NCBI GenBank assembly: GCA_005888595.1 | Contig: VBAL01000009.1 | Coordinates: 1 to 45,008 of the forward strand | From: Candidatus Segetimicrobium genomatis | GTDB lineage: Bacteria; Sysuimicrobiota; Sysuimicrobiia; Sysuimicrobiales; Kaftiobacteriaceae | Direction of reading: 5' to 3' | DNA length: 45,008 nucleotides | In this document: one piece after another, positions 7,143-43,652 of the stretch | Position numbering within the stretch: position 1 is the stretch's first letter | How the letters are laid out: every line of letters begins with the position of its first letter | Made by a program: the position numbers and the translations under genes | Notes under the pieces: model-generated | Database searches by the model: none | What the model was told of the DNA's origin: nothing | Seen by the model: the letters and a program-made list of their open reading frames with translations, nothing else

Positions 7143-8009
7143 ATGCCAAATCGGAAGGGTCTCTCCCGTCCGCCGCGTGTTCTCATCGCGAGCGACCAGA
7201 ACCAGAATCTGCGGCAACTGGAGAACGTCCTCGGCCAAGAAGGCTATTCCGTGCTCCGCCTGTATGCGGGCGCCCCGGTACTCGAGCGGGCCCGGGACGT
7301 GCGTCCGGATGTGATCCTGCTCGATGCCAGGCTCGCCGACCGCGACAGCCTCGAGCTGGGCCACGCGCTGCGCGACGATCCGCTGGTCGGCACGAGCACG
7401 CCGATTCTCCTCTTGACGCCGGGCCATCCGACGCCCAAGGACCATAAGGCCGCGCTGCGCGTCGGTATCTGGGAGCTGCTCCCGCTGCCGCTCGACCCCG
7501 ACGAGCTGCTACCGACCCTGGACCGGTACGTCCGCGCCAAGATCGATGCCGACCTCCTACCCCGGGCCAACATGGTGGACGACCTGACGGGCCTGTATAC
7601 GCCGGCGGGCTTGGCACGCCGGGCGCGCGACCTGATCGTCCAGGCCTCCCACCACAACACGTCGGCCGCCTGTGTGGTGTTCGCGCCGGTTCTCGAAGGC
7701 GAGCCGTCGGTCGAGCTGCTGCAGCTCGTCGGGCGCACGTTTCAAGCCGGCGGGCGCCGTTCGGACGCGATCGGACGAGTGGGGCAGGGGGAGTTCGCCG
7801 TGGTCGCGCCGGGCACCGACGCGGTGGGAGCGGTCAAGCTCGCCCAGCGGTTCCGTCGCGCCATGCCGACCCCCGAGCTGCGGGCGGGGTATGACGCCGT
7901 CGGCAACGTTCGCTACACGCCTGTGGATGCGAATGACCTCCTGGCGCATGCCGCTCGCGCCCTGCAACTGGCCAAAGCCGAGGGAAAATGGATTCGAGCG
8001 TTCACGTGA
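7143..8009 (+). CDS. Atypical receiver + degenerate GGDEF domain protein
   Basis: REC with ILLDA but lacking the acidic pair (IASDQ) and the conserved Lys (LLPLP); DDLTGLY and RVGQGEFAVV in place of GG(D/E)EF. Confidence 0.8.
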   Translation: MPNRKGLSRPPRVLIASDQNQNLRQLENVLGQEGYSVLRLYAGAPVLERARDVRPDVILLDARLADRDSLELGHALRDDPLVGTSTPILLLTPGHPTPKDHKAALRVGIWELLPLPLDPDELLPTLDRYVRAKIDADLLPRANMVDDLTGLYTPAGLARRARDLIVQASHHNTSAACVVFAPVLEGEPSVELLQLVGRTFQAGGRRSDAIGRVGQGEFAVVAPGTDAVGAVKLAQRFRRAMPTPELRAGYDAVGNVRYTPVDANDLLAHAARALQLAKAEGKWIRAFT

Positions 8010-8554
8010 ACGAGGTGGCGCTCGCGAGCCGGCTGCGCGAAGTACCCACCCGTGTGCTCCACGGGCTGCGCCGGCGCGCGGCGCTCGCGGCGCTGCGCCG
8101 TCGTCCTCGTGTGACGTCGCTGCTGGTGGTGTGTCACGGCAACCTGTGCCGCAGCCCGTTCGCCGCGGCGCTGTTGCGCGCATCGCTTGCCGTGCGCGGT
8201 GTGCGCGTCGACTCGGCCGGGTTGTCCGGAACCGGTCGACGGTCGTCGCCCGAGGCGGTCGTGGCGGCGGCGCGCTTTGGCATCGATCTCTCCGCTCACC
8301 GGTCGCAACCCCTGACCGGGGACGGTGCCCGAGCGGTCGATCTCATAATCGTCATGGACTCCGTGCAGCGCCGCGAGGTGTGCGATCGCTTCGGGCGGTC
8401 CGAGCGCGACGTCCTCCTGTTGGGCGACCTCGACCCGGAACCACGGGAACCGCGCACGATCCGGGATCCGGTGAACCAGGCACTCACCGTGTTCGAGGAG
8501 ACCTACGCACGGATCGCGCGCTGCGCGCGTGAGCTGGAGCGGGCGATTGGTTAG
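8006..8554 (+). CDS. Low-molecular-weight protein tyrosine phosphatase (Wzb-like)
   Basis: VCHGNLCRS (CX5R) and IRDP motifs; GTGA overlap with the upstream stop supports GTG8006. Confidence 0.9.
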   Translation: MNEVALASRLREVPTRVLHGLRRRAALAALRRRPRVTSLLVVCHGNLCRSPFAAALLRASLAVRGVRVDSAGLSGTGRRSSPEAVVAAARFGIDLSAHRSQPLTGDGARAVDLIIVMDSVQRREVCDRFGRSERDVLLLGDLDPEPREPRTIRDPVNQALTVFEETYARIARCARELERAIG

Positions 8555-8577
8555 CTTGCTGTCGTCAGGAGCGGCCG

Positions 8578-8955
8578 ATGATCCTCGGAGTGGGGCTCGA
8601 CGTCGTGGAGACGGAGCGGATCGCGCGCGCGCTCGCCCTGCACGGGCGGCGGTTCGAGGAGCGAGTCTACACCGCCGCCGAACTGGCGGAGTGCGCCGAG
8701 CGGGCTGACCGGGCCCAAGCGCTGGCCGGCCGCTTCGCCGCCAAGGAGGCCCTGCTCAAAGCCCTGGGCACCGGCTCGGCGCGCGGCATCTCGTTTCAAC
8801 AGGTCGAAGTGGTCCGGGCGGACGGTGGCAGCCCTACCATGAGCCTGACGGGATCAGCGGCGGCCGAGGCCCGCCGCAAGGGCGTGCGACAGCTTCACGT
8901 GAGCCTCAGCCATCAGCCGGGCCTGGCCGCGGCGGTGGTCATTCTCGAAGGCTGA
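8578..8955 (+). CDS. acpS: Holo-ACP synthase (AcpS-type PPTase)
   Basis: GVGLDVVE, RFAAKEALLKALGTG, VSLSH; 125 aa. Confidence 0.93.
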   Translation: MILGVGLDVVETERIARALALHGRRFEERVYTAAELAECAERADRAQALAGRFAAKEALLKALGTGSARGISFQQVEVVRADGGSPTMSLTGSAAAEARRKGVRQLHVSLSHQPGLAAAVVILEG

Positions 8956-9211
8956 GCTTGGTGCCGTTCCGAGATTTGGTCGCCACGAAGCGGGCGATGC
9001 TGGCGATAGTCCGAAAGTTATCGATCTCGAGATCCTCGAGCGACACGTGAACGCCGAAGTCCTGTTCCAGATGGGCCAGGAATTCGACGAACGTGAGCGA
9101 GTCGACGAGCCCCGTATCGATTAAGTCCGTCTCGAGCGACGGAACCTGCACGTTCAGCTTGTCCGAGAACAGGACGGCAATCCGGCGCTCGAGGTTCGTG
9201 GAGTCCGGCAT
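8939..9211 (-). CDS. Acyl/aminoacyl carrier protein (DltC-like)
   Basis: Acidic 90-aa protein with GLVDSL phosphopantetheine site. Confidence 0.88.
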   Translation of the reverse strand: MPDSTNLERRIAVLFSDKLNVQVPSLETDLIDTGLVDSLTFVEFLAHLEQDFGVHVSLEDLEIDNFRTIASIARFVATKSRNGTKLSLRE

Positions 9212-9212
9212 G

Positions 9213-9716
9213 TCACACGTCCCTGTGTTCGGCGGCCAGCAGATCGAAGAGCAAGCGATCGAGCCGGCGACCGTCGATGCAGTGACACTGCCGCTGCCGC
9301 CCGATGTACCTAAAGTGGAGGCGCTCGAGCACGCGCTGCGCCGGCACGTTCGTCTCCAGGGTCCAAGCGTTGATGGCTTGAAGCCCCAGCTCGGTGAATC
9401 CTAGGGTGAGCATCTTGCTGCACGCCTCCGTTGTGCTGCCACCGTGGCGCTTGCTGCCGAGCACCGCCCACAGCGACGCCGTCTTGAACTTCCGATCCAC
9501 GTTGGTCAGGCCCACCACGCCCACCGGCACGTCTCCGTGATCCGCCGTGTAAGCCCGGATGACCTGGATCTCCCGTTGCGTCATGATCCTCAGCGTCACA
9601 GGCGTCAGCGTCTGGACGCCGTTGCCGAAGTCCAGCCACTTGTAATTCTCGGGCTTGCCGAGCCAGCTGGCCACCAGCTCGATCAGCTCAGGGCTATCCA
9701 GCGGCAACAGTTTCAT
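9213..9716 (-). CDS. GNAT N-acyltransferase (RimJ/RimL-like)
   Basis: PVGVVGL, ASLWAVLG, NVPAQRVLERLHF; AGGAGG upstream of ATG9716; stop lies 1 nt before the ACP start. Confidence 0.8.
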   Translation of the reverse strand: MKLLPLDSPELIELVASWLGKPENYKWLDFGNGVQTLTPVTLRIMTQREIQVIRAYTADHGDVPVGVVGLTNVDRKFKTASLWAVLGSKRHGGSTTEACSKMLTLGFTELGLQAINAWTLETNVPAQRVLERLHFRYIGRQRQCHCIDGRRLDRLLFDLLAAEHRDV

Positions 9717-11310
9717 TGCTCGCAAATGCCTCCTGGAGCAGACGTCGGTCGAATTTGCCGTTCGCGTTCCGCGGCAATCGCTCGTACGCCATCCACCGAG
9801 ACGGCAGCATCGGAGCGGGCAGCAGCTTGGCCAGCGCATGGCGCAACTCACCGGGGGTGACCGCGACCCCGGGCGACGGGACATAGGCACAGCAGATCGC
9901 GGTGCCCTCGAAGCCGTCCGTCGACACAGCGACGACGGCGCACTCTCGCAGGCAAGTCAGCGCGTTCAACGCGGTCTCGATCTCGCCCAGCTCGATGCGA
10001 TAGCCGCGACTCTTGATCTGGGAGTCGGCCCGGCCGAGGAAGTAGACCAGCCCGTCTCCGCCGATGCTCGCGAGGTCCCCGGTTCGATAGATGCGATCCG
10101 CAGGATCGGAAGCGAACGGATTGGGGAGGAAGGCGGCGTGGGTCTTCTCCGCGTCTCTCCAGTATCCCGGGCTCAGGCCCCCGCCCCGGATGTACAGGTC
10201 CCCGACCTCGCCCGGCGGCACCCGCTCCAACCGCTGGTTCAGCACGAGCAATTCCTCCCCTGCGCAGGGCGAGCCGATCGGGATCGCGGCTCGATCGTCC
10301 TCCGGACAGTGCGGCACCGTGTAGTAGCTGCTGGCGATGGTGGTCTCGGTGGGCCCGTACAGGTTTGTGAACTTGACGTGGGGGAGCCGCGTCATCCAGT
10401 ACCGCAGGGCCGGCGTTGGAAAGACCTCGCCGCACCACAACAGCCGTCGCAAAGTGGGGAAGTCATTGAACTTCACCACGTCGAACTTGGCGAGATAGCT
10501 GAGCAGCGAGGGCACCGAAAACCACTGCGTCAGCTCCGCGGTACGGATGAACTGCGCCAGCGCGGTGGGGAGCAAGTTGAGGTCGGGTGGCACGAGGTGA
10601 ATCTGGGCACCGGCGGCGAACGTCCCGAATACATCGAACGTCGACAAATCGAAGTGCAACGGCGGATGACCAGACATCCGGTCCGCAGGCCCGAGCCCGA
10701 AGTAGCCCGTCGCCCACTCTACGAAACGGATCACGCTGCCGTGCGTGATGACGACTCCTTTCGGCGTGCCGGTCGAGCCCGATGTGAACAAGATGTGCGC
10801 AGGATCCCTCGCCTCGTTGCGGAAGGCCAGGGGGCTGGTTGCCGCGCGCCGGACGTCCTCGAGCGAGAATCTGGGCGCGACGTGCTCCCCGACCGCCGGC
10901 CCCCGCCCCTGGTCTAGCCACCCGATCGCCGTCGTGCCCCCCAACTGCTCGTGCGATAGCAGCTCGTCGAGCAGCGGAGCCGCGCTGGAACCCGCCAGAA
11001 TCACCCGTGGCCCTCCCGACTGTACGATCTTCGCGACTCGCGGCGCGGGGCTCGACGGATCGACCGGGATGTAGATGCAGTCCGCCTTCAAGATCCCCAG
11101 CATGCTCACGATGGCGAGGGGAGACTTAGGGAGTAGAAAGCAGACGCGGTCGCCGCGCTCGCACCCGGCGGCCTTCAGGGTGCGCGCCAGCTGGTTACTC
11201 AAGGTGTCCAGTTGCCCGTAGGTCAACCGATCGCCGCCCATCACGAGGGCGGTGGCGTCCGGGCGGCGCTCGGCCTGCCCCATCACCCAGTGCTGCAGCA
11301 GAGAGATCAT
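9694..11310 (-). CDS. Stand-alone amino acid adenylation enzyme (DltA-like)
   Basis: ILFTSGSTGTPKG, FDLS, NLYGPTE, YRTGDL, GRADSQIKSRGYRIELGEIE, LPRNANGK; no fused C or PCP domain. Confidence 0.92.
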   Translation of the reverse strand: MISLLQHWVMGQAERRPDATALVMGGDRLTYGQLDTLSNQLARTLKAAGCERGDRVCFLLPKSPLAIVSMLGILKADCIYIPVDPSSPAPRVAKIVQSGGPRVILAGSSAAPLLDELLSHEQLGGTTAIGWLDQGRGPAVGEHVAPRFSLEDVRRAATSPLAFRNEARDPAHILFTSGSTGTPKGVVITHGSVIRFVEWATGYFGLGPADRMSGHPPLHFDLSTFDVFGTFAAGAQIHLVPPDLNLLPTALAQFIRTAELTQWFSVPSLLSYLAKFDVVKFNDFPTLRRLLWCGEVFPTPALRYWMTRLPHVKFTNLYGPTETTIASSYYTVPHCPEDDRAAIPIGSPCAGEELLVLNQRLERVPPGEVGDLYIRGGGLSPGYWRDAEKTHAAFLPNPFASDPADRIYRTGDLASIGGDGLVYFLGRADSQIKSRGYRIELGEIETALNALTCLRECAVVAVSTDGFEGTAICCAYVPSPGVAVTPGELRHALAKLLPAPMLPSRWMAYERLPRNANGKFDRRLLQEAFASNETVAAG

Positions 11311-11748: not shown

Positions 11749-13092
11749 TCACTGCTTCACGATATCCCCGCTCGTCACGGTGCCGGACCGCCCGAATCCC
11801 TCCGACGGGAGCCAGAAGCTGATGAAGTCCAAGCCGCTCCCCGCTGGACCGTTGTCGCACACCTGCAACGTGTAGCTCACGACGGCACCCGTGCGCTCCC
11901 TGCCGACGGCGTCGAACTCCACCCCGTGGCTCGGGTCGCTGCAGGCGTTCGAGCTGTTGCGATACGCTGTGAACGACGTCGTGGGGTCTGTCGACGGGTC
12001 CGTTGTAATCGCGCCGGCTTGCCCATCCGGTTGCACGTCGTCGTAAGCGGTGAGCGTGAACCGCCCTGTCAGATCGGCTCGCACGGCGAAGTCGAACGTC
12101 TGCACGCTGTTGCTGAGCGTGGGAGATCCCATCCCCATCTGGCCTTTGCCAATGACACTCGCTACCGGTACACCGCACGTAACGGAGAGGCTCGTCGTGC
12201 CCGTCCCGCCCGCCGGCACCGTGACGGTCTGGGGATTCGCCGTGCTCACCGTGCAGTTCGAAGGCACTCCCGACAGCGTGACGGGGTTATCGCCGGCCGG
12301 CACGGTGAAGGTGACGCTGCCGCTCGTGGCGATCGGTTGGCTTGAGGTGCCATCGACCGTGACGGTGTAGCCATTGGGGGCGTATGAGCCGGTTGTCGTA
12401 GTCGTGACCGTCAGGCTGCCGCTGCCACTGCCGGTCTGGACGCAGCTCACGGAGAAGGGCGCTGGCACCGTCGCGCCGCCCTGCACGGTAACCGTCTGCG
12501 AGTTGGACCCGCTCACCGTGCAGTTCGCCGCGATGCCCGACAGAGTGACCGAGTGACCGCCATCCGTAAGCGCGGTGAACGTGACGCTGCCGTTCGTCGC
12601 GATGGCTTGGCTCGCCCCACCGTCTACCGTGACCGTGTAGCCGTTGGCCGGGAGGTCCACGCCGGTGGTGTTGGCCGAAACGAATAGGCCGCCCTGCGAC
12701 ACGCAGCTCAAGGTGAAGCTGACGGAGTGGGTCGTGCTCCCCGCAATGGGGTCGAAGTCGTAAACCCACCGCGGGTTATTCGGGTTGTCGACTCCACCGA
12801 TCACCCTGCAGTTCGAGGCGATTCCATAGAGGGCCACTACGTGATTGCCCGCCGACAGAACGAAGGCGACCACTCCGTTCGCCCCGACGGGCTGGCTTTG
12901 GGAGTCATCCACCCAGACAGTATAGCCAGCGGGGATGTCGGAGCCCGTGGTGGTGACAGTGACTGTCAATGGGCTGGTCTGCGACAAAAGGTCCCCACCT
13001 GGCTTCGGACTCTGGGGATCCGTACACGCGGTCGCGGCCAGCAGCATCGCGAAGGCCGCTGACAACCCAGTCTGCCCAACGGCGCGTGCCAT
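11749..13092 (-). CDS. Repeat lipoprotein 1: three ~80-aa Ig-like A repeats + one B domain
   Basis: AGGAGG before ATG13092; signal ending LLAATAC; repeats GYTV.VD...NC.V...SC; C-terminal FDFAVRADLTGR...CDNGPAG...SGDI. Confidence 0.85.
   Translation of the reverse strand: MARAVGQTGLSAAFAMLLAATACTDPQSPKPGGDLLSQTSPLTVTVTTTGSDIPAGYTVWVDDSQSQPVGANGVVAFVLSAGNHVVALYGIASNCRVIGGVDNPNNPRWVYDFDPIAGSTTHSVSFTLSCVSQGGLFVSANTTGVDLPANGYTVTVDGGASQAIATNGSVTFTALTDGGHSVTLSGIAANCTVSGSNSQTVTVQGGATVPAPFSVSCVQTGSGSGSLTVTTTTTGSYAPNGYTVTVDGTSSQPIATSGSVTFTVPAGDNPVTLSGVPSNCTVSTANPQTVTVPAGGTGTTSLSVTCGVPVASVIGKGQMGMGSPTLSNSVQTFDFAVRADLTGRFTLTAYDDVQPDGQAGAITTDPSTDPTTSFTAYRNSSNACSDPSHGVEFDAVGRERTGAVVSYTLQVCDNGPAGSGLDFISFWLPSEGFGRSGTVTSGDIVKQ
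11870..11925. repeat. Near-identical direct repeat, copy in lipoprotein 1 B domain
   Basis: 54 of 56 nt identical to 14275-14330. Confidence 0.9.
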
Positions 13093-13334
13093 GAGGCTTC
13101 CTCCTGAAGGTTCCATGCTGCGCAGCAACGCTCTCGCACGCTCAGCGCAAAAAGCGAGCCGCCCCACGCGGCCTGACACAACGAGCTCGCGGGGGGCGCA
13201 TCTGCGGCGCGCGTGCGGCGGGTGAGCGCTTAGCATCGCAGAGGTCGGTGTTGCTTGTGTGCAGCGGCCTGGAGGTCGCAAAAGCCCCCGGGGTGGGGAC
13301 GTAATCCCAAGCCGGCCCGGTGCGCTCGCAACGC

Positions 13335-15395
13335 TCACAATATGAACGTGACCACCTTCGTGTCCGACCCGGAGACGCCGGCGCTATCTGTCACCGTCAC
13401 GCGGATCGTGTAGCTGCCGAACAGGAGATACGTATGCGATGCGCTGATCGTGCCCTGGCTCGAGGTACTGCCCGTCGTCGATGAACCGTCGCCCCAGGTG
13501 ATCGTGTACGACCACGGCCCGTTGTTGTCGGGATCACTGAACGATGCGCTTTCCGTGTAGAAGAGCCCGATCAAGCTTGTCTCGTCCGGCCCGGCGTTCA
13601 CAGTCGGCGGCTGGTTGGGCGTGATGCAACCCACGGAGTAAGAGACCGTCGCCGTCCCGCCCGAGGGCACGGTCACCATGCGGGACGTGCCGCCGCTCAC
13701 TGTGCAGTTACTGGCCACTCCGCTGAGTTCCACGGTGTGCGTGCCGGCCGCCAGGTTCGCAAACGTGACACTGCTGTTGATCCCGATCGCCTGCCTCGTG
13801 GTCTCGTCCACGGTCACCGTGTAGCCACTGGGGACGGATGAGCCTGAGGTGCTGGTCGTGACCGTGAGGTCCCCCGTGATCGCCGCGCAGCTCACGGCGA
13901 AGGCAGCCGTCGCCGTTCCGCCCGAGGGCACCGTGACTGTCTGGGAGTTGCCCCCGCTCACCGTGCAGTTCGCTGCCACGCCGGAGAGGACCACGGCGTG
14001 GCTGCTCGGCGAGAGGCCCGTGAAGGTGACGCTGCCGTTGACCGCGATCGGCTGGCTATTGGTCCCGTCGACCGTCACCATGTAGCCGTCCGGATCGAGG
14101 TTCGAGCCGGTCGTGCTGGTCGAGACAGCGAGCGAGCCCTCTGAGGAGGGCGCAGTCGACTTGGCAATGTCTCCGCTCGTCAGGTTGCCCGAGCGGTCGT
14201 ACGATTCCGACGGGAGGAAGATGCTCCACAAGTCCATCCCGCTCCCAGCCGGTCCGTTGTCGCAGACCGCCACGGTGTAGCTCACGATGGCACCCGTGCG
14301 CTCCCTGCCGACGGCGTCGAATTCCACCCCGCGGCTGCGGTCGCTGCAAGCGCTCGAGCTGTTGCGGTACGCCGTGACGGACGTCGCCGGGTCCGTCGAC
14401 GCATCCGTGGTCAGCGAGGCGACCTTCCCATCCGGCTGCACGTCGCTGTAATCGGTGGCGGTGAACCGCCCCGTCAGGTCGGCCCGCACGTCGAAGTCGA
14501 AGGTCTGCACGTTCGTCCCGGGCGTGGGAGATCCCACCCCGATCTGCCCGAGCCCGGTAACGCGCGGGACCGCGCTTGTGCAGCTCACCGCGAAGGTTGC
14601 GCTCGCTGCGCCGCCGGCGGGCACCGAGACCGTCTGCGGGTTGGCTCCGCTCACCGTGCAGTTGGCCGCCACCCCCGAGAGCGCAACCGGGTGATCACCG
14701 GCGGCGAGGCCGGTAAAGGTGACGCGGCCGTTCGTCGCGCTCAGCTGGGCATTCGTGCCGTCGACGGTGACCGTGTAGCCGTCCACATCCAAGTTCGAGC
14801 CGGAGGTGCTGGTCGAGACAACGAGCGTATCCCCTGAGGAAGAAGCGGCCGACCTGGCGATGTCCCCGCTCGTGACGGAGCCGGAGCGGCTGAATCCCGC
14901 CGACGGCAGGGCTATGCCGAAGAAGTCCAGACCGTTCTCCGGTGGCCCGTTGTCGCACGCGACCACGGTGAAAGCCACTAGCGCTCCCGTGTCCTCCCGG
15001 CCGGTTCCGTCGAACTCCGCCCCGCGACTCGGGTCGCTGCAGGCGCCCGACGCCATCCGGAACGCTGTGACCGCCGTCCCGGCATCCGTCGGATCCACGC
15101 GCAGCGTCGGGGCGCTCCCGTCGGCTCTGCCCTCGCCGTAATCGGAGACCGTGAGTCTCCCAGTCAGATCGGATCGCACGTCGAAGTCGAACGCCATCTC
15201 AGCCCGGGTCCCGATGCGCCCGAGCCCGGCGATGCGCACGATCACGGGGCTTGCCGTAGCGTCATGTCTGGGGCCGAGGCGCTCAGGACTAGCGGCATCA
15301 TGACAACCCACGCCGAGCAGCGCGGCTGCGAGGAGTCCCGGAAGGCTAGCGAGCGGTTGCCGCTTTCTGGCCGTGATGCCGCCTCTCTGGTGCAA
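13335..15395 (-). CDS. Repeat lipoprotein 2: B-A-B-A-A-PKD architecture
   Basis: Signal ending LLGVGC; two B domains, three A repeats; C-terminal PKD-like domain (NQPPTVNAGPD, TITWGDG, HTY, TVTD); TTG start uncertain. Confidence 0.85.
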   Translation of the reverse strand: MHQRGGITARKRQPLASLPGLLAAALLGVGCHDAASPERLGPRHDATASPVIVRIAGLGRIGTRAEMAFDFDVRSDLTGRLTVSDYGEGRADGSAPTLRVDPTDAGTAVTAFRMASGACSDPSRGAEFDGTGREDTGALVAFTVVACDNGPPENGLDFFGIALPSAGFSRSGSVTSGDIARSAASSSGDTLVVSTSTSGSNLDVDGYTVTVDGTNAQLSATNGRVTFTGLAAGDHPVALSGVAANCTVSGANPQTVSVPAGGAASATFAVSCTSAVPRVTGLGQIGVGSPTPGTNVQTFDFDVRADLTGRFTATDYSDVQPDGKVASLTTDASTDPATSVTAYRNSSSACSDRSRGVEFDAVGRERTGAIVSYTVAVCDNGPAGSGMDLWSIFLPSESYDRSGNLTSGDIAKSTAPSSEGSLAVSTSTTGSNLDPDGYMVTVDGTNSQPIAVNGSVTFTGLSPSSHAVVLSGVAANCTVSGGNSQTVTVPSGGTATAAFAVSCAAITGDLTVTTSTSGSSVPSGYTVTVDETTRQAIGINSSVTFANLAAGTHTVELSGVASNCTVSGGTSRMVTVPSGGTATVSYSVGCITPNQPPTVNAGPDETSLIGLFYTESASFSDPDNNGPWSYTITWGDGSSTTGSTSSQGTISASHTYLLFGSYTIRVTVTDSAGVSGSDTKVVTFIL
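14275..14330. repeat. Near-identical direct repeat, copy in lipoprotein 2 second B domain
   Basis: 54 of 56 nt identical to 11870-11925. Confidence 0.9.
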
Positions 15396-36558: not shown

Positions 36559-37499
36559 TGTCCCCTACACCTGGCTTCACCATTGCTGTGTGCACAAGGA
36601 ACCGGCCCACTGATCTCAAGCGGTGCGTGCGATCCGTGACGCGCGTGGCGCGGCCGGCCGCCGCGCAGTTCATGGAGTTGCTAGTGGTGGACGACGGGGA
36701 ATTGCAGCCGTCCCTCGTCACCGAGCTGCGTCGCTTGACGGAAGCGTGGGGTGGTCGCTTCGCATATCACCGGATGCTTAACCGACACGGGCTGTTGAAC
36801 GCGCGCCTGGCAGCGCTCGCAGCGGCCGCTGGGGAGGTCATCCTCTTCCTCGATGACGACGTCGAGGTTGGCCCTGAGTACTTGGTCCGGCTGGTCGGCC
36901 GCTATGTCGAGTGGCCAGACGCGGCTGGTATCGGCGGGGTCGACGCACTGCTGCGGCGCCGCAGCTTCGCTTCGCGGGCCTTCGATAGTGTCTTTTGCAT
37001 GGACTCGGGTCACCCCGGTCGCCTATCCCCGAGTGGCTATAACGCATCGATATCTCGCTGGATTGACGCGCAAGCTCCGTTCGAAACCGAGTATTTGGAC
37101 GGCTGCAACATGTCATTCCGGCGCCGAGCGCTGACAGAACTGGCGGCGGTAGACTGGCTGCAGGGTTACAGCCTAGGCGAGGATATTTACTTGTCCCTCG
37201 TAGCTGGCCGTACCGGGCCACTGTGGGTCGATCCGGCTCTCCGGGTGCTTCATTACGTCTCAAAGGTCTCGCGCGCTAACGCGGGCGTCATAGCCCCCAC
37301 GGTCATTTCCATGATGTATCACGTCCTTCGAGTCCGCAAGGCGCGCTGGTGGAACTACGTTGCCCTCCAATGGACTGCCCTCGGGCTAACACTGAACAGC
37401 CTTATTCGGCCTGCACAGCGGAGGAGAGCGCTTGGCTTTCTTCGGGGCCTCTTTGTCGTGGAGCGAAACCTCCTGCGAACCAGACGTGAGGGGGCGTGA
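36558..37499 (+). CDS. Glycosyltransferase family 2
   Basis: TIAVCTRNR, VVDDG, FLDDDV, GCNMSFRR, GEDIYL; start moved to ATG36558. Confidence 0.92.
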   Translation: MSPTPGFTIAVCTRNRPTDLKRCVRSVTRVARPAAAQFMELLVVDDGELQPSLVTELRRLTEAWGGRFAYHRMLNRHGLLNARLAALAAAAGEVILFLDDDVEVGPEYLVRLVGRYVEWPDAAGIGGVDALLRRRSFASRAFDSVFCMDSGHPGRLSPSGYNASISRWIDAQAPFETEYLDGCNMSFRRRALTELAAVDWLQGYSLGEDIYLSLVAGRTGPLWVDPALRVLHYVSKVSRANAGVIAPTVISMMYHVLRVRKARWWNYVALQWTALGLTLNSLIRPAQRRRALGFLRGLFVVERNLLRTRREGA

Positions 37500-37595: not shown

Positions 37596-39407
37596 ATGAC
37601 GACAAGCAGCGGCACGAGGCATACCACGTTCACCGCCTTCCTGGTCGGGGCGCGCTCGCTGTGGCAGCATCCTGGACTCGCCGTCGCCTTCCTCGTGGCG
37701 ACGCTCACGCAGGGGACGCTCCAGGGCGGCATGGTGTGGGCGCTGCGCCAAGTGCTCATCATCCTCAACGGGCCCGGGGGGATGAACCGCCGCGTCTTGC
37801 TCGTGGGCGCCCTGGCCGTGTGCGCGATCTGGTTCGTGCGCGCCGCCGGGATCTATGCCGCTCAGGTGCTCGCGGGCCGGCTGGCCTCCCGCGTCGAGCT
37901 GCGGTGGATGCGAGAGGTGCTCGAGAAACTGTTGACGCTTCCGGTCAGCTTCTTTGACAAGAGCAGCCGGGGCGATCTCGTCATGACCGCCTACAACGAC
38001 ACGAAGACCGTCCGCCTCGTCACGGTCCAGTTCGGCCAGCTGGTGCTCTACCTCTCGCAGCTCGCCGGGCTAATGGTCGCGGCCTGGGCGATGAGTGCGA
38101 AGCTCACGCTTATCGGGCTCTTCTTCGCACCGCTCGGGTGTGTTCCGGTCTATTGGCTGGGGCGGCGACTCACCGAGGCTGCACGACGAGAGCAAAAACA
38201 GGGGGTCTCGCTTCAGGACAGTTATCTCCAGCTGACCTCGGGGATCCGAGTGATCAAGGTCAATGCCGGAGAGAGCCAGATCTTGGAACGTGCCCGACAG
38301 GTCTCCCAGCAGTTGTGGCGCAGCGTGCTGCGGCAGATCCACGCGGGAGGGCTCGCGCGCCTGCTGCTCGACGGCGTGGAGGGCTTTGGTCTGATCCTCA
38401 TCTTGGTCATCGGCGGCGCGGACGTGGCCGCCGGGCGCATGCCGTGGCAGTCGCTGCTCGGCTTGCTCCTCGCCGTGATGGCGATCTACGCCCCCGTTCT
38501 CGGATTGCTCAGCATCTACTCATACATCCGCCAGGCGATTCCAGATCTCGATCGTCTCGACCGGATCCTGAACACAGTGCCGGAGATCCAGGACCGGCCC
38601 GGCGCGCGGCCGCTGCACGAGGGGCCGGCCACGATTGAGCTCCGGAACGTGTCGTTCACCTACAACGGCCAGCCCGCGCTCAGCGACATCTCGGCCGTGA
38701 TCCATCGCGGCGAAACGATCGGCATCGTAGGACCGACGGGTGCCGGCAAGTCCACGCTGCTGTCGCTCCTACTGCGCTTCTATGACCCCACGGACGGCGC
38801 GATCCTGTTCGACGGCGTTGACCTGCGTGACCTCCGGCACCGGGATCTCATGAGCCAGAGCTCGATCGTGCTCCAAGAGCCATTTCTCTTCATCGACACG
38901 ATCGCCAACAACATCCGCATGGGGCGACCCGGGGCGACGCTGGACGAAGTGGTCGCCGCCGCGAAGGCCGCGGGCGTGCACGACGAGATCCTCCAGATGG
39001 AGTTCGGCTACGAGACGGTCGTCGGGACCGGGCCCGAGGCTCGCGGGTTGTCGGGAGGGCAGAAGCAGCGGATCTGCGTCGCGGCGGCGCTCTTGAAGAA
39101 CGCGCCGCTGCTGTTCCTCGACGAAGCGACCAACAGCCTCGATTCCGTGTCGGAGGCGAAGGTGCAGGCCGCGATCGAGCGCCTGATGCGGCACCGGACC
39201 ACCTTCGTGATCGCACACCGCTTCTCCACGCTCCGCAACGCCGATCGGATCATTGTCCTCGAGCAGGGGCGGATGGTCGGGTTCGACTCGCGCACGCGGC
39301 TGCTCACGAGCTGCAAGACATTCCGGAAGCTCTGGGCCTCGCAGATGGCGCTCGTCAGCGACTCGCCCGAGGTCCTCCCCCGACGGCCGGAGATGATGGA
39401 TGTCTAG
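37596..39407 (+). CDS. MsbA/PglK-like ABC half-transporter (TMD + NBD)
   Basis: TM domain then GPTGAGKST, Q-loop LQEP, LSGGQKQR, LFLDEAT, IAHR. Confidence 0.93.
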   Translation: MTTSSGTRHTTFTAFLVGARSLWQHPGLAVAFLVATLTQGTLQGGMVWALRQVLIILNGPGGMNRRVLLVGALAVCAIWFVRAAGIYAAQVLAGRLASRVELRWMREVLEKLLTLPVSFFDKSSRGDLVMTAYNDTKTVRLVTVQFGQLVLYLSQLAGLMVAAWAMSAKLTLIGLFFAPLGCVPVYWLGRRLTEAARREQKQGVSLQDSYLQLTSGIRVIKVNAGESQILERARQVSQQLWRSVLRQIHAGGLARLLLDGVEGFGLILILVIGGADVAAGRMPWQSLLGLLLAVMAIYAPVLGLLSIYSYIRQAIPDLDRLDRILNTVPEIQDRPGARPLHEGPATIELRNVSFTYNGQPALSDISAVIHRGETIGIVGPTGAGKSTLLSLLLRFYDPTDGAILFDGVDLRDLRHRDLMSQSSIVLQEPFLFIDTIANNIRMGRPGATLDEVVAAAKAAGVHDEILQMEFGYETVVGTGPEARGLSGGQKQRICVAAALLKNAPLLFLDEATNSLDSVSEAKVQAAIERLMRHRTTFVIAHRFSTLRNADRIIVLEQGRMVGFDSRTRLLTSCKTFRKLWASQMALVSDSPEVLPRRPEMMDV

Positions 39408-39492: not shown

Positions 39493-41145
39493 TCACCAGC
39501 GCTTTCTTCTCCTAACAAGACAATCGATCACGGTCATGTTACCTACCTGATTAAACGTGTGCACGCCCGCCACGTTCGGCGCCCAATCGGGAATAATTCT
39601 GTCCACCTCAACTTCTTCATAGCTTTCTGGGCTTAGGTGGAGGATGCGGTTGATTGAAACAGCATACCCGTAGCGATTGGAGCAGTCTTGAGCCGGTCTA
39701 TAAAGCTGGCCATGCTTCTCGAAAATGCGCCCCGCCGGCCGGGCTGAGCGAACGTCGCTCTTTATGGGGTTGTTACGATGCGGAGTCCACGGCCCTAATG
39801 GTGAATCTGCATGGAATAGGTGGAGTTCATCCCAACTCCCGGCACCATAGGCAGGAATGCTTGCGAACAACCACCATTTTCCAAACAGGAACGCTAGGGT
39901 GGGGTCCCAAGCTGTCAGGCCAGAAAGGAGCACGCGTTCCAATTTCCACTGCGAAGGAAAATTGAGGCAACGATACAGTTCAACTTGATGGTGTGCCCCC
40001 GTCTCCGGTATCATGAACCAATCTCCATCCCACTGGAACACAAAGGGATAGGACAAGTGATAATCCTTTTCGAGGATAGGAGTGGGCGCGGCACTATTTC
40101 CCCTATCATCAACCACGGTCAAGACAATGGATCCCTTAGCGGTTGAAAAGCGCAATTCCTCGTGAAATATGTAATAGTCCGTCCCTACTTGGATGGGAAA
40201 GGGATCGGCCCAAAAACGATCCGTTGGAGGAATCAACTGCCGAAAGGTTCCCATCACTGGTCGGTCACCTACCCCGTATTGATATGCCAAAGCCCATTGC
40301 TCACGATAAAGCATGCTCACCCACTTGTCAGAAAGGTAACGTCCCACTAAGAAGGTCCCTGCCCGCAACATGGCAGGATTACCCGGAAGCAGTGCCGGGC
40401 GTTTTGTACCTTCAACCGGCGCAGCCGCCTTGAGGGTTTCGACGAATGCGTCCGCATCTTCCCACAGCAACCGAATCTTCCTCGCCAAAGCGCCGGCGAT
40501 CTTCCAGTAAACATGATTTTGGCTGCGAGACAGTGAACGACGATCGGTGGGGGCAACAGACCTATAAATCACACGCTTCTTGTCGAACCCCTTCCAGTGG
40601 ACACAGAGGCCGGCTTCCGTGGTTGGCCTCCCATCGATAAGCTCCCAAAACGCTGGGGTTGATTGCGTTCTCGGGTCGTCGCTCTGACCAAACGTTGTGC
40701 TCCAAACACCATACTTAGGTAGTTCGTCTAAACACCCATCCGGCATTAAGGCAAAAGGATCCAACACCACGTCAATCCGCTCTTCTTGAAACATGCGAGC
40801 TAATGGAGTATTCACCCGTTGCGATCCCACCAGAGCATCTCGACGATCAGCCCCATTGAGAACGCGACAATTGGGGAGCCCGGAGTGCAGATCGATTGGT
40901 GCAAGGGCGTCAAGAAAACTGCGAAACAAATACCGATCTACGTGCTTGTACAAGAAGAAAAGGGCGTGGCGCAATTGCTGAACAAATCTAACTGACCCCC
41001 GGTCCTCTTCGAAGGCCGCTTGCAACACCAGCACGAACTTTGCAGTTCCGGAGCGCTTAACGTCTTCTACGCACTTGAACAACCAGTTGGGAATCGTTTT
41101 GCCATCTGTAACGAGTAGAAGCCGGAGCGGTGCGTTGCGATTCAT
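39493..41145 (-). CDS. GINT1 N-terminal-like (glucosamine inositolphosphorylceramide transferase family) beta-propeller protein
   Basis: FWADPF, HLSYPFVF, MIPET, WDPT, WTPHRNNPI, ARPAG, YRPAQDC..YG repeats; lower GC than its neighbours. Confidence 0.75.
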   Translation of the reverse strand: MNRNAPLRLLLVTDGKTIPNWLFKCVEDVKRSGTAKFVLVLQAAFEEDRGSVRFVQQLRHALFFLYKHVDRYLFRSFLDALAPIDLHSGLPNCRVLNGADRRDALVGSQRVNTPLARMFQEERIDVVLDPFALMPDGCLDELPKYGVWSTTFGQSDDPRTQSTPAFWELIDGRPTTEAGLCVHWKGFDKKRVIYRSVAPTDRRSLSRSQNHVYWKIAGALARKIRLLWEDADAFVETLKAAAPVEGTKRPALLPGNPAMLRAGTFLVGRYLSDKWVSMLYREQWALAYQYGVGDRPVMGTFRQLIPPTDRFWADPFPIQVGTDYYIFHEELRFSTAKGSIVLTVVDDRGNSAAPTPILEKDYHLSYPFVFQWDGDWFMIPETGAHHQVELYRCLNFPSQWKLERVLLSGLTAWDPTLAFLFGKWWLFASIPAYGAGSWDELHLFHADSPLGPWTPHRNNPIKSDVRSARPAGRIFEKHGQLYRPAQDCSNRYGYAVSINRILHLSPESYEEVEVDRIIPDWAPNVAGVHTFNQVGNMTVIDCLVRRRKRW

Positions 41146-41199
41146 CGTCGTTATTAGCAAGTTCGTGTGGTCTTGATCAGGTGCTGGAGAAGTCGAGTG

Positions 41200-42501
41200 T
41201 CATTCCGTGTGTTGTGTGGGGGCGAAATCGGATGTAACAAATCTGCGGATGGCCGCGCCGGCGTTGCGATAGGCGTCGATGGTCCGCTCCGCGATGGGTT
41301 CCCACGCGAGCGCCGTCTCGGCATAGCGCCGGGCGTTTGCCTCGAAACGGCGACGTAGGCCGCCGTCGGTGAGCAGGCGCTCGAGCGCTGCCGCCAGGCT
41401 CTCGACGTCGTCCACCGGCACGAGGAGCCCGCAGTCGCCCTGCTCCACGAGCTCGGCGAGCCCGGCGATCCGCGTCGCGACGATCGCGCGGCCCATCGTG
41501 ATGGCGGCGATGGCGACGCCGCTCTGGTCGATGGCGCGATAGGGTAGGGCGACCACCGAGGCGGCCTCGAAATACGACGGTACCTGCTGCTCCTCGATAT
41601 AGTGCAGGTGGAACATCACGCGATCCTCGATGTCGAGTTCGCGCGCGAGACCGCGATAGCGCTCAATGGTGGCGAACGGTGCGCCGGCTAGTACGACGCG
41701 GAAGACCAACCCCCGGTCCCGAAGAGTCGCTGCGGCGCGTAGAAGCACGTCTGCGCGCTTCGACGGCCGCAGCTCCCCAAACATGAGGATGATGGGCGTA
41801 TGCTCCGCCGCCCCGTCGAGCGCCGGCACCGAAGCCCGTTCCTGATTCCAAAACTGCCGGAAGTTGCCGTGGGGAATGCGCGAGATGCGCTCGGGCGGGA
41901 CCCCGAACTCCTCGATTAAGCCCCGGACCGTGTCCTTCGTATGCGCGATGAGGTGGTGGCAGGCGTGGTACAGTCGCCGGAGCCGCTGCCGGTCCCGTGC
42001 GTTCCGTCTGGAGCCGTGCGGCCACAGGTTGTGAACAGTATGCACGATAGGGATTTGGTCCCGAATCCACTGCAACCACCGGGCGTCCACGGGGAGAGCG
42101 GGCGGGAAATGGAGATGCAGCACATCATACCGGCCCAGCGACGCCGTGAGGCGGGCAAGAGACGTGAGGTGGCCAGCGAGGCGCAGGCACAGCCACACCG
42201 GCCGCGTCAGGCGCCCAGCCCGATACGTGGGCAGCTGCGTCCGCCGATAAAACGCGATCCGTGGCGTATACGTGATTTCCCGCCAGCAGCGGCTCGCGCG
42301 CCCGAACGCCGGACCCGTGAAGAGCTCGACTTCGCATCCCGCGTCCACCAGCGCTTTGCAGAGATTGTGCATGTACCCCGGAGCGGAGAACGACGGGTTC
42401 AGCATCAGGACGCGGGGCTCGAGACCGCGTTTCAGGTCGCCGCCCGTAGCAGAACACTCGGCTCCTGGGCGGAGGAACTGGACGACCTTCGTGGCACTCA
42501 T
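41200..42501 (-). CDS. Glycosyltransferase family 4
   Basis: VHTVHNLWPH, IPHG, FGELRPSK, LPYRAIDQSGV, GLLVPVDD; ATGA overlap with the upstream GT4. Confidence 0.9.
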   Translation of the reverse strand: MSATKVVQFLRPGAECSATGGDLKRGLEPRVLMLNPSFSAPGYMHNLCKALVDAGCEVELFTGPAFGRASRCWREITYTPRIAFYRRTQLPTYRAGRLTRPVWLCLRLAGHLTSLARLTASLGRYDVLHLHFPPALPVDARWLQWIRDQIPIVHTVHNLWPHGSRRNARDRQRLRRLYHACHHLIAHTKDTVRGLIEEFGVPPERISRIPHGNFRQFWNQERASVPALDGAAEHTPIILMFGELRPSKRADVLLRAAATLRDRGLVFRVVLAGAPFATIERYRGLARELDIEDRVMFHLHYIEEQQVPSYFEAASVVALPYRAIDQSGVAIAAITMGRAIVATRIAGLAELVEQGDCGLLVPVDDVESLAAALERLLTDGGLRRRFEANARRYAETALAWEPIAERTIDAYRNAGAAIRRFVTSDFAPTQHTE

Positions 42502-43652
42502 CGCGTCCGGGATCCGCTCTTGGAGCGTACGGTTTGGTACACGGCTTCGTACGACCTGAGCCAGGCGGCGAGCCCGAATTCTCGCTCCAGCCGTCCCCGA
42601 GCTGCGCGCGCCCGTCGCCGGGCCGCGGCCGGATTCTGAAACACGTCTCGGAGCGCCGTGGCGACCGCGTGGGAATCGTCTGGAGGCACGAGTAGGGCCT
42701 CCTTGGCCGACAGCATCTCGGGGACTCCTCCGACACCGGCGGCGATGATAGGCACCTCAGCGGCCATCGCCTCAAACAGTGCAATCGGTGTCCCCTCCGA
42801 GCGAGAAGTCAGCACAAACGCCTCGAAGGCTCGAAGCAAGCGTCCGGCGCGAGGCACGAGGCCGTGCCACCGGATCCGGTCTACAACGTCCACAGACGCG
42901 GCGCGGGTTTCGAGTGCCTGCCGCAGTGGACCGGCCCCCACGAACGAGACCGTCACGGGAAGATCTTCCAGCTGCCGCAAGGCCTCGACTAGTACGTCCG
43001 GGCCTTTCTCCGCACTCAAGCGCCCGACCCACCCCACGCGAAAGCCATTGGGTGCGACTCCGAGCCCGAGCGCCCGACACGCCGCTCCCCGGTCGAGGGG
43101 AGGCTCCGAGGGGTACCACGCGTTCTGCACGTAGTGGAGCCGCTCGCGCGGCACGCCGCTCGCGGCCAGGTCGTCCACGAGCGTGCGGGAAACGGCTACG
43201 ACGGCGTCGAACCGCCGCAGCGCGCGGCGCTGCAGCCATTCGTAGAAGCGATTCCTCCTGTCGCCACCCGTGAAACCGTGGACGGTCGAAACCACGGGAA
43301 TGCCCAGGCCACGCGCTATGGCCGCATCCAATACATCCGCCCGATACCCGTGTGTGTGGACCACGTCGGGACGCAGCCTGCGACACAGCCGCGCGACCTC
43401 CGCCCGCTCTTGCAGATAGCCCCGCCGAGGGATTGCGATCGTGAGGACCTCGACCCCAGCGTCCCGGAACGGCGCGAGGAAAGGGTGGTCGAGCGGGCCG
43501 GAAAAGACCACAGCCGCTACGCGGGCCTCGACCTTGGACCCGCGCGCTCCCAAGACCAGCGCAGGAACAACCGCCTCCTTGCCTCCGACTTCGGCGGGGG
43601 TAAGAAGATGGAGCACGGAAACCCTGGAGGTCGGCGCGTATGAGCTCACCAT
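42498..43652 (-). CDS. Glycosyltransferase family 4
   Basis: VHTHGY, STVHG, VGRLSAEKG, SRSEGTPIALFEAMAA, GGVPE; start uncertain. Confidence 0.92.
   Translation of the reverse strand: MVSSYAPTSRVSVLHLLTPAEVGGKEAVVPALVLGARGSKVEARVAAVVFSGPLDHPFLAPFRDAGVEVLTIAIPRRGYLQERAEVARLCRRLRPDVVHTHGYRADVLDAAIARGLGIPVVSTVHGFTGGDRRNRFYEWLQRRALRRFDAVVAVSRTLVDDLAASGVPRERLHYVQNAWYPSEPPLDRGAACRALGLGVAPNGFRVGWVGRLSAEKGPDVLVEALRQLEDLPVTVSFVGAGPLRQALETRAASVDVVDRIRWHGLVPRAGRLLRAFEAFVLTSRSEGTPIALFEAMAAEVPIIAAGVGGVPEMLSAKEALLVPPDDSHAVATALRDVFQNPAAARRRARAARGRLEREFGLAAWLRSYEAVYQTVRSKSGSRTR

Follow-up and report, generated by a model that had tools for sequence, protein, structure and literature searches.

A legionaminic acid gene island in a probable surface-glycan hot-spot of an uncultured soil bacterium

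Nonulosonate sugars are best known from pathogens, and the commonest known use of legionaminic acid (Leg) and pseudaminic acid (Pse) is the glycosylation of flagellin, as in the Campylobacter, Helicobacter and Aeromonas systems. In Campylobacter jejuni, CMP-Leg is made along a GDP-GlcNAc route by PtmE, LegB, LegC, LegH, LegG, LegI and LegF. More generally, glycan loci are as a rule mosaic and vary between strains, with tailoring cassettes that are portable. Here we analyse a stretch of 45,008 bases, the window, which is the entire contig C164 in the metagenome-assembled genome (MAG) of an uncultured soil bacterium (2.94 Mb in 325 contigs, ~88% complete), so that flanks beyond the contig are not directly readable. 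Gene families were assigned by Pfam and NCBIfam profile scans of long open reading frames (ORFs), scored against the model cut-offs; below, L numbers denote metagenome or genome loci, G numbers the genomes of relatives (G000 being the MAG itself) and C numbers contigs. The window is probably a variable surface-glycan hot-spot of three evolutionary layers, whose product would be an exported, N-acyl-tailored Leg glycan.

Every enzymatic step of the C. jejuni pathway has a counterpart in one co-directional block on the minus strand (27080-34062). It consists of a LegC aminotransferase (27080..28381; TIGR04181, 445.7 bits, cut-off 420), a LegB-like NDP-GlcNAc 4,6-dehydratase (28305..29345; best match TIGR04180, 404.7 bits, below the cut-off of 475), a PtmE-like protein with CBS and nucleotidyltransferase domains (29291..30343; PF00571 and PF00483), a LegH-like N-acetyltransferase of the PglD/NeuD type (30328..30981; TIGR03570, 152.6 bits, slightly below the cut-off of 160.8), a NeuC/LegG-like hydrolysing 2-epimerase (30978..32126; TIGR03568, 332.6 bits, cut-off 235.9) and a LegF-LegI-like fusion of cytidylyltransferase and synthase, NeuA-NeuB (32119..34062; PF02348, PF03102 and PF08666). 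In the fusion a CTP_transf_3 domain is present and the NeuB model scores best (365.3 bits against a cut-off of 399.65, versus 260.7 for PseI). Homologues of this protein align from about residue 51-85, and its counterpart in the sister lineage introduced below has 571 residues, so that the true start probably lies near 33819 (product of ~566-571 residues). The block differs from that of C. jejuni in the fusion of synthase and cytidylyltransferase, and in that the LegB, NeuB and NeuD models score slightly below their cut-offs. The PtmE-like gene, which would mark the GDP-sugar route, is kept in all Leg cores found, and the fusion in at least eight Gemmatimonadales loci (53-57% identity in MAGs of this order), one Verrucomicrobiia MAG and one Desulfarculaceae MAG. 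The Leg-type pathway claimed in the original prediction is thus borne out by passing LegC and NeuC models and a PtmE-like gene, with LegB and NeuB as best matches below cut-off; homology to curated families predicts a complete six-gene route to CMP-Leg via GDP-sugars.

The sugar does not appear to have the flagellar use that it has in C. jejuni, flagellin not having been found in the MAG. That CMP-Leg serves flagellin glycosylation here is extremely improbable: modules of a 3-ketoacyl-acyl carrier protein synthase III (KAS III) and an acyl carrier protein (ACP), such as the one in the window, are found in flagellin glycosylation islands (PMC3927599), but neither a flagellin N-domain nor a Maf/MptE-like protein was found in the genome (~88% complete), and the island has an exporter and GT4 glycosyltransferases that cytoplasmic flagellin glycosylation does not need. 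STT3/PglB was likewise not found in the genome, and these negative results argue against both flagellin glycosylation and N-glycosylation at the NCT motifs of the lipoproteins described below.

From 34062 down to 8939, the minus strand carries the Leg core, a luciferase-like monooxygenase (LLM), the remnant of a nonribosomal peptide synthetase (NRPS), a methyltransferase, a phosphopantetheinyl transferase (PPTase), the KAS III block, a CE4 deacetylase, a GNAT-like protein (GNAT390), a CapD-like dehydratase, the lipoproteins LP2 and LP1, and a cassette built around an amino-acid adenylation (A) domain. The plus strand from 34409 encodes a GT-B glycosyltransferase (GT-B 641), a GT2 and an MsbA-like ATP-binding cassette (ABC) half-transporter, and the right end, again on the minus strand, a GINT1_N protein, two GT4s and a beta-helix protein. 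We propose that a conserved backbone (layer 1) would comprise a sensor kinase, a response regulator with GGDEF domain (RR-GGDEF), a low-molecular-weight phosphotyrosine phosphatase (LMW-PTP), AcpS, the A-domain/GNAT/carrier cassette, the lipoprotein family and genes of the GINT1_N/GT4 type. An accessory island (layer 2), shared with the sister lineage and partly with a third lineage, would hold the six-gene Leg pathway, the KAS III/ACP/PPTase/GNAT390 genes, CE4, GT-B 641, the ABC exporter, the two GT4s and the beta-helix protein. Window-specific additions and debris (layer 3) would be CapD, GT2, the methyltransferase, LP2, a truncated PPTase and a dead NRPS A domain and peptidyl carrier protein (PCP) with a surviving LLM.

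The delimitation of layer 2 draws on metagenome contexts. In L071, whose A domain is 86% identical to that of the window, NeuAB-NeuC-PglD-PtmE-LegB-LegC (81-89%) stand with the LLM (86.5%), a 64-residue ORF and a CE4 gene, followed by an unknown gene on the opposite strand, the cassette, AcpS, LMW-PTP and an LP1-like gene (76%); LP1-like genes of this lineage lie within ~5 kb of the cassette. In L145/L146, the Leg core is flanked divergently by KAS III (89%), ACP (71%), PPTase (74-79%), GNAT390 (82%), GT-B (64%), ABC (90%) and CE4, and then by GT4a (84%), GT4b (80%) and two beta-helix proteins. Because L071 and L145/L146 overlap with 98% nucleotide identity, they are assigned to one sister lineage. 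The island genes common to this lineage and the window are 64-90% identical at the amino acid level and differ in order, the KAS III block lying on the opposite side of the Leg core; GT2, GINT1, CapD, the methyltransferase, LP2 and the NRPS debris are extra in the window.

A third lineage (L148) has KAS III (84%), ACP (58%), GNAT390 (69%), a Sfp-type PPTase, CapD (40%) and two NRPS modules, one of them an intact A-[LLM]-A-PCP (4660-7602; LLM 58%), together with a NeuB-NeuC-CE4-NeuA set of a different type (32-39%) and an ABC gene (56%) that begins at the NeuA stop. Three lineages therefore combine a nonulosonate pathway with the acyl module and the ABC exporter, which lends real but thin support to the idea that they may form a functional unit. 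The Leg core also occurs by itself: a NeuAB scan of named genomes returned 29 loci, eight of them from Gemmatimonadales and sharing the fusion at 49-57% identity; these eight hold the six-gene core only, the other window modules being absent within 10 kb. In one of the eight (L038), the core is accompanied by a flippase of the Wzx type and a beta-helix protein resembling pectate lyases.

Species-representative genomes were searched as well (40 relatives and 94 phylum-scope genomes; queries LP1, NeuAB, A domain, CapD, GT-B 641 and GNAT390). No orthologue of the NeuAB fusion was found in either same-genus genome or in any of 19 same-family genomes, none of GT-B 641 in the relatives' genomes, and none of GNAT390 in the relatives or at phylum scope. 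These genomes alone suggested complete independence of the modules, a view overturned by the metagenome contexts. On the question of whether the sub-modules assort independently, the outcome is split: the Leg core, acyl module, GT-B, ABC, GT4s and beta-helix protein recur together, whereas the lipoproteins and the cassette occur without Leg genes.

Substitution rates between the window and the sister lineage show that the core island genes are intact and under purifying selection, with ratios of nonsynonymous to synonymous rates (dN/dS) of 0.13-0.28 (Leg genes 0.15-0.27, KAS III 0.13, LLM 0.16, ABC 0.18, GT4a 0.19, GNAT390 0.21). In three soil metatranscriptomes, small RNA contigs map to LP1 (in 3/3 runs), the A domain, CapD, LegC, NeuAB, GT-B 641, GT2 and the 5' region of GT4b; they show in situ transcription and are too sparse for co-expression analysis. 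The part of the window from 17 to 27 kb is found in at least ten soil metagenomes (word share 0.79-0.98). It is therefore very unlikely that the locus is a largely decaying, non-functional remnant of a horizontally acquired island, as its dead NRPS A-PCP, truncated PPTase and junk ORFs at 21.9-25.8 kb might suggest: selection on the core genes, RNA contigs on eight genes and the same arrangement in these metagenomes all speak against it.

The third layer includes the debris of an NRPS. MupA/Atu3671-type LLMs are usually embedded in an NRPS A domain (e.g. in MtaG-type modules), and the LLM homologue of L148 (58%) does sit inside an A domain, followed by a PCP. In the window, what is left of such a host is a pseudogene on the minus strand (24782..25774) covering the C-terminal part of an A domain and a PCP: the N-terminal half of the A domain is gone, there are two frame switches and one stop, the core motifs have degenerated, and the serine of the PCP has been substituted (LGGNTL). 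The same stretch is found gap-free in independent Logan contigs of three soil metagenomes, taken from different studies, so it is not an assembly error. Its intact homologue is the A-[LLM]-A-PCP module of L148; the host A-PCP is thus decayed in the window and deleted in the sister lineage. In contrast, the LLM itself (25617..26888, minus strand; TIGR04020, 524.8 bits, cut-off 244) has outlived its NRPS host as an independent gene under purifying selection, and is 86.5% identical to the sister-lineage copy (L071, 5933-7117; dN/dS 0.16). Between the remnant and the KAS III block lie PPT246, a PPTase related to Sfp-type enzymes (22407..23147, minus strand; PF01648 over residues 54-147 only), and a methyltransferase dependent on S-adenosylmethionine (23739..24599, minus strand; PF13489). 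PPT246 apparently has no N-terminal half, its C-terminus is junk-like, and it is 46% identical to the 4PPT_N+ACPS PPTase of L148; the methyltransferase, a window-specific addition, has no match in the sister lineage.

The acyl module occupies the minus strand next to this debris. A FabH-like KAS III (20882..21913; NF006829, 277.4 bits, cut-off 249) has an intact Cys-His-Asn triad and is followed by a dedicated carrier, ACP2 (20618..20881; weak PF00550 match, WDSV motif), an AcpS-type PPTase dedicated to the module (20083..20655; PF01648), a CE4 polysaccharide/sugar N-deacetylase (19059..20123; PF01522, 1e-18) and GNAT390 (17867..19039), a protein of 390 residues with weak GNAT matches that belongs to a family of ~98 proteins and is presumed from sequence to be an acyl-ACP-dependent N-acyltransferase. 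In both the sister lineage and L148, GNAT390 again comes after KAS III-ACP, and CE4 genes are present in every related island, as divergent alleles. A Chloroflexi homologue of GNAT390 (51%) has no NeuB in view. The viosamine island of Pseudomonas syringae, with its KAS III (vioS), acp, reductase (vioR), acyltransferase (vioB), methyltransferase (vioM) and transferase (vioT), makes an N-(3-hydroxybutanoyl) amino sugar (PMC3927599). As in the window, KAS III and its dedicated ACP there belong to an amino-sugar locus that also encodes an acyltransferase, a methyltransferase and a transferase (PMC3927599), and this island appears to be the nearest documented analogue of the acyl swap proposed here. 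The window differs in having no VioR-type reductase, in a 390-residue GNAT-like protein instead of the hexapeptide VioB, in an additional dedicated PPTase and CE4 deacetylase, and in its target, which is probably Leg or another exported glycan rather than flagellin.

The association with NRPS genes admits another product, a small exported glycolipid or a lipo- or peptidyl-nonulosonate conjugate. This natural-product-like molecule would be made by KAS III/ACP, NRPS and GNAT390 and exported by the ABC half-transporter, with the NRPS part already lost in the window. In L148, KAS III-ACP-GNAT390 are directly beside two NRPS modules, hydrolases and the Sfp-type PPTase, with NeuB genes and the ABC 5-10 kb away on the same contig; the window ABC protein scores comparably for MsbA, HepA, glucan and bacteriocin exporter models, so that its cargo is unspecific; and no priming transferase is found in any of the three islands. 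We nevertheless regard such a conjugate as unlikely, because two conserved GT4s, GT-B 641 and a beta-helix protein (possibly a lyase or epimerase) point to an oligo- or polysaccharide, because Wzx and Wzy_C accompany related Leg cores and GT-B homologues, and because the NRPS was evidently dispensable, decayed in the window and deleted in the sister lineage. L147 is a case of such pairing, a 38% GT-B homologue lying between Wzx and NeuC-NeuB-NeuA with a Wzy_C gene nearby.

For the transfer of Leg, the candidate is GT-B 641 (34409..36334, plus strand), a member of a rare family with 16 homologues found in all. The Tannerella forsythia transferases Tanf_01245 and TFUB4_00887 (BFO_1060 family) are experimentally supported transferases of Pse/Leg derivatives, TagB-like GT-B proteins with an HP motif (PMC5420450). 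GT-B 641 is likewise a GT-B protein with an HP motif encoded next to a nonulosonate pathway: its H486-P487 is invariant in nine homologues, and its family adjoins NeuB genes in 3/3 contexts examined. Its structural model has a GT-B fold (pTM 0.75), and the fold search returned generic GT-B proteins and epimerases (2-epimerases), MshA and TagF. GT-B 641 differs from the T. forsythia proteins in falling far below the model cut-offs (NF046086, the BFO_1060 family, 42.5 bits versus 200; TIGR04396, 54 versus 125) and in an extra N-terminal region of ~300 residues. The two systems differ further in that the window has no Wzx, and in that protein glycosylation, which T. forsythia has as a general O-glycosylation system, is hypothetical for the window. 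The dN/dS of GT-B 641 is 0.36 (dS 0.71). With 64% amino acid identity at that dS, it is far more divergent from its sister orthologue than are its neighbours (80-90%, dS 0.3-0.5). This excess would mean an older or replaced allele, as expected if transferase alleles are swapped and linkage or serotype thereby changed. Sequence searches of the PDB with GT-B 641, GNAT390, LP1 and GINT1 gave no significant matches.

Export would fall to the fused protein of transmembrane and nucleotide-binding domains encoded 3' of GT-B 641 and GT2 (37596..39407, plus strand; PF00664 and PF00005). PglK of C. jejuni, Wzk of Helicobacter pylori and MsbA are, like it, single-polypeptide exporters of this architecture, and the window exporter is likewise set in a glycan locus without Wzx and neighbours transferase or NeuA genes in three lineages: a 90% orthologue lies directly 3' of GT-B 641 in the sister lineage and a 56% homologue directly 3' of NeuA in L148. 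The window protein is the equivalog of neither MsbA (TIGR02203, 350.9 bits versus a cut-off of 602) nor PglK (NF050066, 143 versus 1000), and its substrate is putative. A PglK/MsbA-like flippase, as it had been called, therefore stands as an MsbA-like half-transporter, not as a member of either model family.

Wzx/Wzy, Wzm/Wzt, ligase, oligosaccharyltransferase and priming transferase had been noted as out of view, and indeed none of them is on contig C164. The genome encodes seven Wzy_C proteins and two Bac_transf phosphoglycosyl transferases, all on other contigs, so that priming and ligation or polymerisation can come in trans. Candidates for such trans-acting functions are a second glycan locus on contig C279 (~6.9-24.9 kb), with two Wzy_C proteins, a Bac_transf priming transferase, DegT, a LegB-like protein and a nucleotidyltransferase, and a small PglC-like priming transferase on contig C304. 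In the pathway that we infer, CMP-Leg would be made in the cytoplasm; CE4 would remove the acetyl from an amino group, either on Leg or on some other amino sugar, and GNAT390 would re-acylate this position with a short acyl chain that KAS III assembles on its dedicated ACP; the GT4s (and GT2) would assemble an oligosaccharide on a lipid carrier, to which GT-B 641 would add Leg; the ABC half-transporter would export the lipid-linked product; and the Bac_transf and Wzy_C proteins from other contigs would prime the glycan and finally ligate or polymerise it. Whatever glycan the site specifies, the A-domain cassette of the backbone may decorate it with aminoacyl groups. The glycan first proposed for this locus, carrier-protein-tailored, containing Leg and exported by the ABC protein, is thus compatible with the data and has some comparative support from the three lineages, while its chemical steps beyond CMP-Leg, its export substrate and its acceptor are put forward from gene content. 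An LPS- or capsule-like polymer is the more likely acceptor, and display on the adjacent lipoproteins is not favoured.

The two lipoproteins are encoded on the minus strand. LP1 (11749..13092), a fast-evolving member of the backbone, has three Ig-like A repeats followed by a B domain, and LP2 (13335..15395) reads B-A-B-A-A-PKD according to its translation and PKD matches. Their lipoboxes are LAATAC and LLGVGC, with a Cys that is nearly invariant (at least 90%) in 13 aligned sequences and is followed by x-D/E-P-Q-S-P, and both proteins contain 26% Ser+Thr, as the description of modular, Ser/Thr-rich lipoproteins in the original prediction had it. That prediction was also right that most A repeats contain NCT (five of six) while bacterial D/E-x-N-x-S/T sequons are mostly absent (none in LP1 or LP2). 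Each A repeat has a conserved pair of cysteines ~26 residues apart, one of them being that of NCT, and the motif therefore looks structural. PglB-type N-glycosylation was considered and rejected, STT3/PglB not being found in the ~88% complete genome. The AlphaFold2 model of LP1 (pLDDT 75) shows tandem beta-sandwiches resembling Gram-positive pilins and adhesin stalk domains, and its fold search returned generic Ig-like domains of pilins and adhesins. LP1 has a dN/dS of 0.56, fast as is often the case for surface-exposed proteins. In L089, a copy of LP2 with 98% identity accompanies LP1 and the A domain.

Scanning metagenomes with LP1 gave 67 loci (544 kb in total, 24 of them of at least 10 kb), whose neighbours include the cassette (8), LMW-PTP (8) and RR-GGDEF (6); NeuAB, NeuC, PglD, PtmE, GT-B 641, ABC, KAS III and GNAT390 were found in 0/67. 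Among the 40 relatives, the lipoprotein family occurs in G001 only, on a 50-kb contig (C118) without a match to any other window protein. These contexts bear on the proposal that one dedicated pathway makes an ABC-flipped, Leg-capped glycan, tailored by both carrier systems and O-linked to the adjacent Ser/Thr-rich lipoproteins. Its attractions are the position of the LP genes inside the cluster and of LP1-like genes within ~5 kb of the cassette in the sister lineage, the Ser+Thr content, surface-type Ig-like stalks and transcription of LP1, the precedent of a Leg-capped O-glycan on T. forsythia surface proteins (PMC5420450), and the seven Wzy_C proteins, a family that includes PglL-type O-oligosaccharyltransferases, with ligase, polymerase and PglL-type enzymes not distinguishable among the seven. 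Set against this are the absence of nonulosonate, GT-B, ABC and KAS III genes from all 67 LP loci, the isolated LP copies of G001, the wide occurrence of the cassette without Leg genes, the terminator-like hairpin at the end of LP2 and the separate transcription unit of LP1, the failure to find PglB together with the structural look of NCT, and the Bacteroidetes O-glycosylation motif D[ST][AILVMT], absent from LP1 and found twice in LP2. Joining both carrier systems and the lipoproteins in one dedicated pathway consequently finds no comparative support, and we judge it quite improbable. One protein of L074 (6147-7436) joins the B domain to a PL14-like polysaccharide-lyase domain. The fusion suggests that the B domain may be a modular extracytoplasmic domain of carbohydrate-active proteins, and hints at a carbohydrate-facing surface role of the LP family instead of, or besides, that of an acceptor.

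Carrier-protein aminoacylation of envelope polymers is known from the Dlt system (DltA, DltC, DltB and DltD) and from AlmEFG of Vibrio cholerae, and the window resembles them in pairing a free-standing A domain with a small carrier protein in the setting of an envelope glycan. The cassette reads, on the minus strand, as an A domain that is DltA-like but not DltA (9694..11310; TIGR01733, 384.7 bits, cut-off 317.4; DltA models 269-280 bits against cut-offs of 476-560), a small GNAT of the Acetyltransf_3 family, the presumed cassette transferase (9213..9716; PF13302, 6.2e-11), and a carrier with a VDSL serine motif, CP1 (8939..9211; weak NCBIfam DltC/ACP matches, the DltC equivalog model also being below its cut-off). 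Convergent with the carrier gene on the plus strand is an AcpS-type holo-ACP synthase (8578..8955; PF01648), whose 80-85% identical orthologues adjoin the cassette in L071, L073 and L079, and before it an LMW-PTP (7988..8554, plus strand; PF01451, 6.8e-24) that is recurrent near the LP family and the cassette. The aminoacyl and acyl carrier modules of the original prediction are thus both present, the one next to acpS and the other as KAS III/ACP/PPTase, with the carrier serines retained in CP1 and ACP2, and a third carrier was that of the decayed NRPS. The cassette differs from Dlt and AlmEFG in that no MBOAT-family DltB, DltD or AlmG-type transferase is found in the window or in seven related contexts, the GNAT standing in that place, and in its usual partner, a 342-residue LLM that is absent from the window and present on the MAG's own contig C185. 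This partner is unrelated to the window LLM (no tblastn match at E < 1e-8).

At least 120 A-domain homologues at 65-91% identity are among the matches listed, and in relatives the small GNAT always lies between A domain and carrier. The trio occurs at 60-63% identity in G001, G002, G003 and G007, beside other glycan genes; no NeuB orthologue was found in these four genomes, only weak NeuB-region matches in G001 and G007 (E ~1e-4 to 1e-3). L072-L077 have a four-gene cassette (342-residue LLM, A domain, GNAT, carrier) surrounded by genes for GT4, AsnB-type amidotransferase, GINT1_N, epimerase and Wzx, commonly near AcpS, LMW-PTP, RR-GGDEF and LP1 orthologues (54-76%), and no Leg genes. Cassette and LP family are thus widespread without Leg genes and are taken as older residents of a conserved backbone at this chromosomal site. 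Contig C185 (L034, 603-4909) carries a second LMW-PTP/AcpS/carrier/GNAT/A-domain copy, 76.6% identical in nucleotides to window 8129-11322, with the 342-residue LLM directly upstream and a frameshifted A domain; AcpS thereby occurs twice in the MAG, in copies 80% identical in amino acids. This copy is either a paralogous locus or a co-binned contig of a related population. The conserved LLM/A-domain/GNAT/carrier cassette at glycan loci of several Gemmatimonadales relatives and metagenomic contigs is of interest in itself, its chemistry being undescribed.

Taken together, the co-occurrence in three Gemmatimonadales lineages of a nonulosonate pathway, KAS III/ACP/GNAT390, an A-[LLM]-PCP NRPS and an MsbA-like ABC could also betray an undescribed class of carrier-protein-tailored nonulosonate glycoconjugate, with acyl or peptidyl tailoring, ABC-exported and attached by one of the Wzy_C/PglL-like proteins to the fast-evolving Ig-like lipoproteins. 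We see this as a long shot; if true, it would be a protein O-glycosylation system of Gemmatimonadota.

Several points weigh against the surface-glycan reading that we prefer. The co-occurrence of layer 2 is known from only three lineages, and the best comparison lineage is shallow (~86% nucleotide identity), so that inherited synteny explains part of it. The fold predicted for GT-B 641 is generic and the nonulosonate-transferase models match it below their cut-offs only, the ABC protein lies under the cut-offs of both the MsbA and the PglK model, and the acyl module contains no 3-oxoacyl-ACP reductase. The metatranscriptome contigs are sparse and may include DNA, and claims of absence depend on a MAG that is ~88% complete. 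The LP genes and the cassette do stand beside the Leg island in the window and the sister lineage, which leaves room for a functional link there. Finally, the chemistry, the acceptor and the lipid carrier are all putative.

Among the remaining genes of the window, the CapD dehydratase and glycosyltransferases named at the outset are confirmed. A CapD/PglF-like membrane NDP-HexNAc 4,6-dehydratase (15472..17556, minus strand; PF02719, 8.3e-100) is a variable addition with a 40% homologue in L148, absent from the sister lineage and from G001-G003. The GT2 (36456..37499, plus strand; PF00535) is a window-specific insertion between GT-B 641 and ABC, absent from the sister lineage. On the minus strand at the right end, the GINT1_N protein, with a GH43-like propeller (39493..41160; PF24793, 8.9e-47), is a backbone-type glycan gene with orthologues (60-70%) neighbouring the A-domain cassette in L072, L076 and L077; GT4a (41200..42501) has counterparts at 84% identity in the sister lineage and at 78% in L077, and GT4b (42498..43673) is 80% identical in the sister lineage. 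The last gene encodes a right-handed beta-helix protein (43963..44931, minus strand; PF13229, 24.5 bits, slightly below the cut-off of 25.9) with 49-53% paralogues in the sister lineage, one of whose beta-helix proteins also has F5/8 type C and Big_2 domains. Beta-helix proteins (pectate-lyase/NosD-like) accompany Leg loci in three lineages: the window, L145 (17579-21905) and L038 (16164-17618). Judging from its family, the window protein may act as a glycan lyase or as an epimerase, or may be a surface protein linked to the Leg glycan.

The shared sigma54-like sites of the original prediction did not hold up. TGGCAC-N5-TTGC occurs 52 times with up to two mismatches across the window, against 49.5 expected, and is thus not enriched; the site upstream of LP1 is the T-tail of the terminator-like hairpin and T-tract that lies 3' of LP2, between it and LP1 (13154..13173, minus strand). 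The sole perfect match (43670..43684, minus strand) lies just upstream of GT4b, and rpoN is encoded in the genome. Two Arg-rich ORFs (21906-22274 and 23144-23596) have no family match in Pfam or NCBIfam and are probably not genes. A one-base insertion polymorphism (an extra A at 23604) in two of four soil assemblies is intergenic, upstream of one such probably spurious ORF.

Soil populations also vary at this site. In four soil metagenomes from different studies, contigs diverge from the window at 15288, 25954, 25684, 9335, 9029, 8279 and 19313; six of the loose-end sequences were checked and none is in the MAG. We read these divergence points at module borders as co-existing population variants, relatives or other organisms. 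An odd joint of 19330 to 9318, with 10 inserted letters, recurs in soil runs.

In kind, the result is useful and unsurprising, since strain-variable surface-glycan loci with portable tailoring cassettes are an already known type; within it, GT-B 641, GNAT390, the LLM/A-domain/GNAT/carrier cassette and the LP B domain are uncharacterised families. Nothing was found in the literature on nonulosonates of Gemmatimonadota or on the combination of modules in the window. The locus bears on the synthesis, decoration and export of nonulosonates in soil phyla that are abundant yet uncultured, such as Gemmatimonadota, and it offers three candidates: a rare GT-B family as Leg transferase, a KAS III/ACP/GNAT-like module, ancestrally associated with NRPS, as a route to unusual N-acyl groups on nonulosonates, and an MsbA-like ABC exporter that may replace Wzx in their export.

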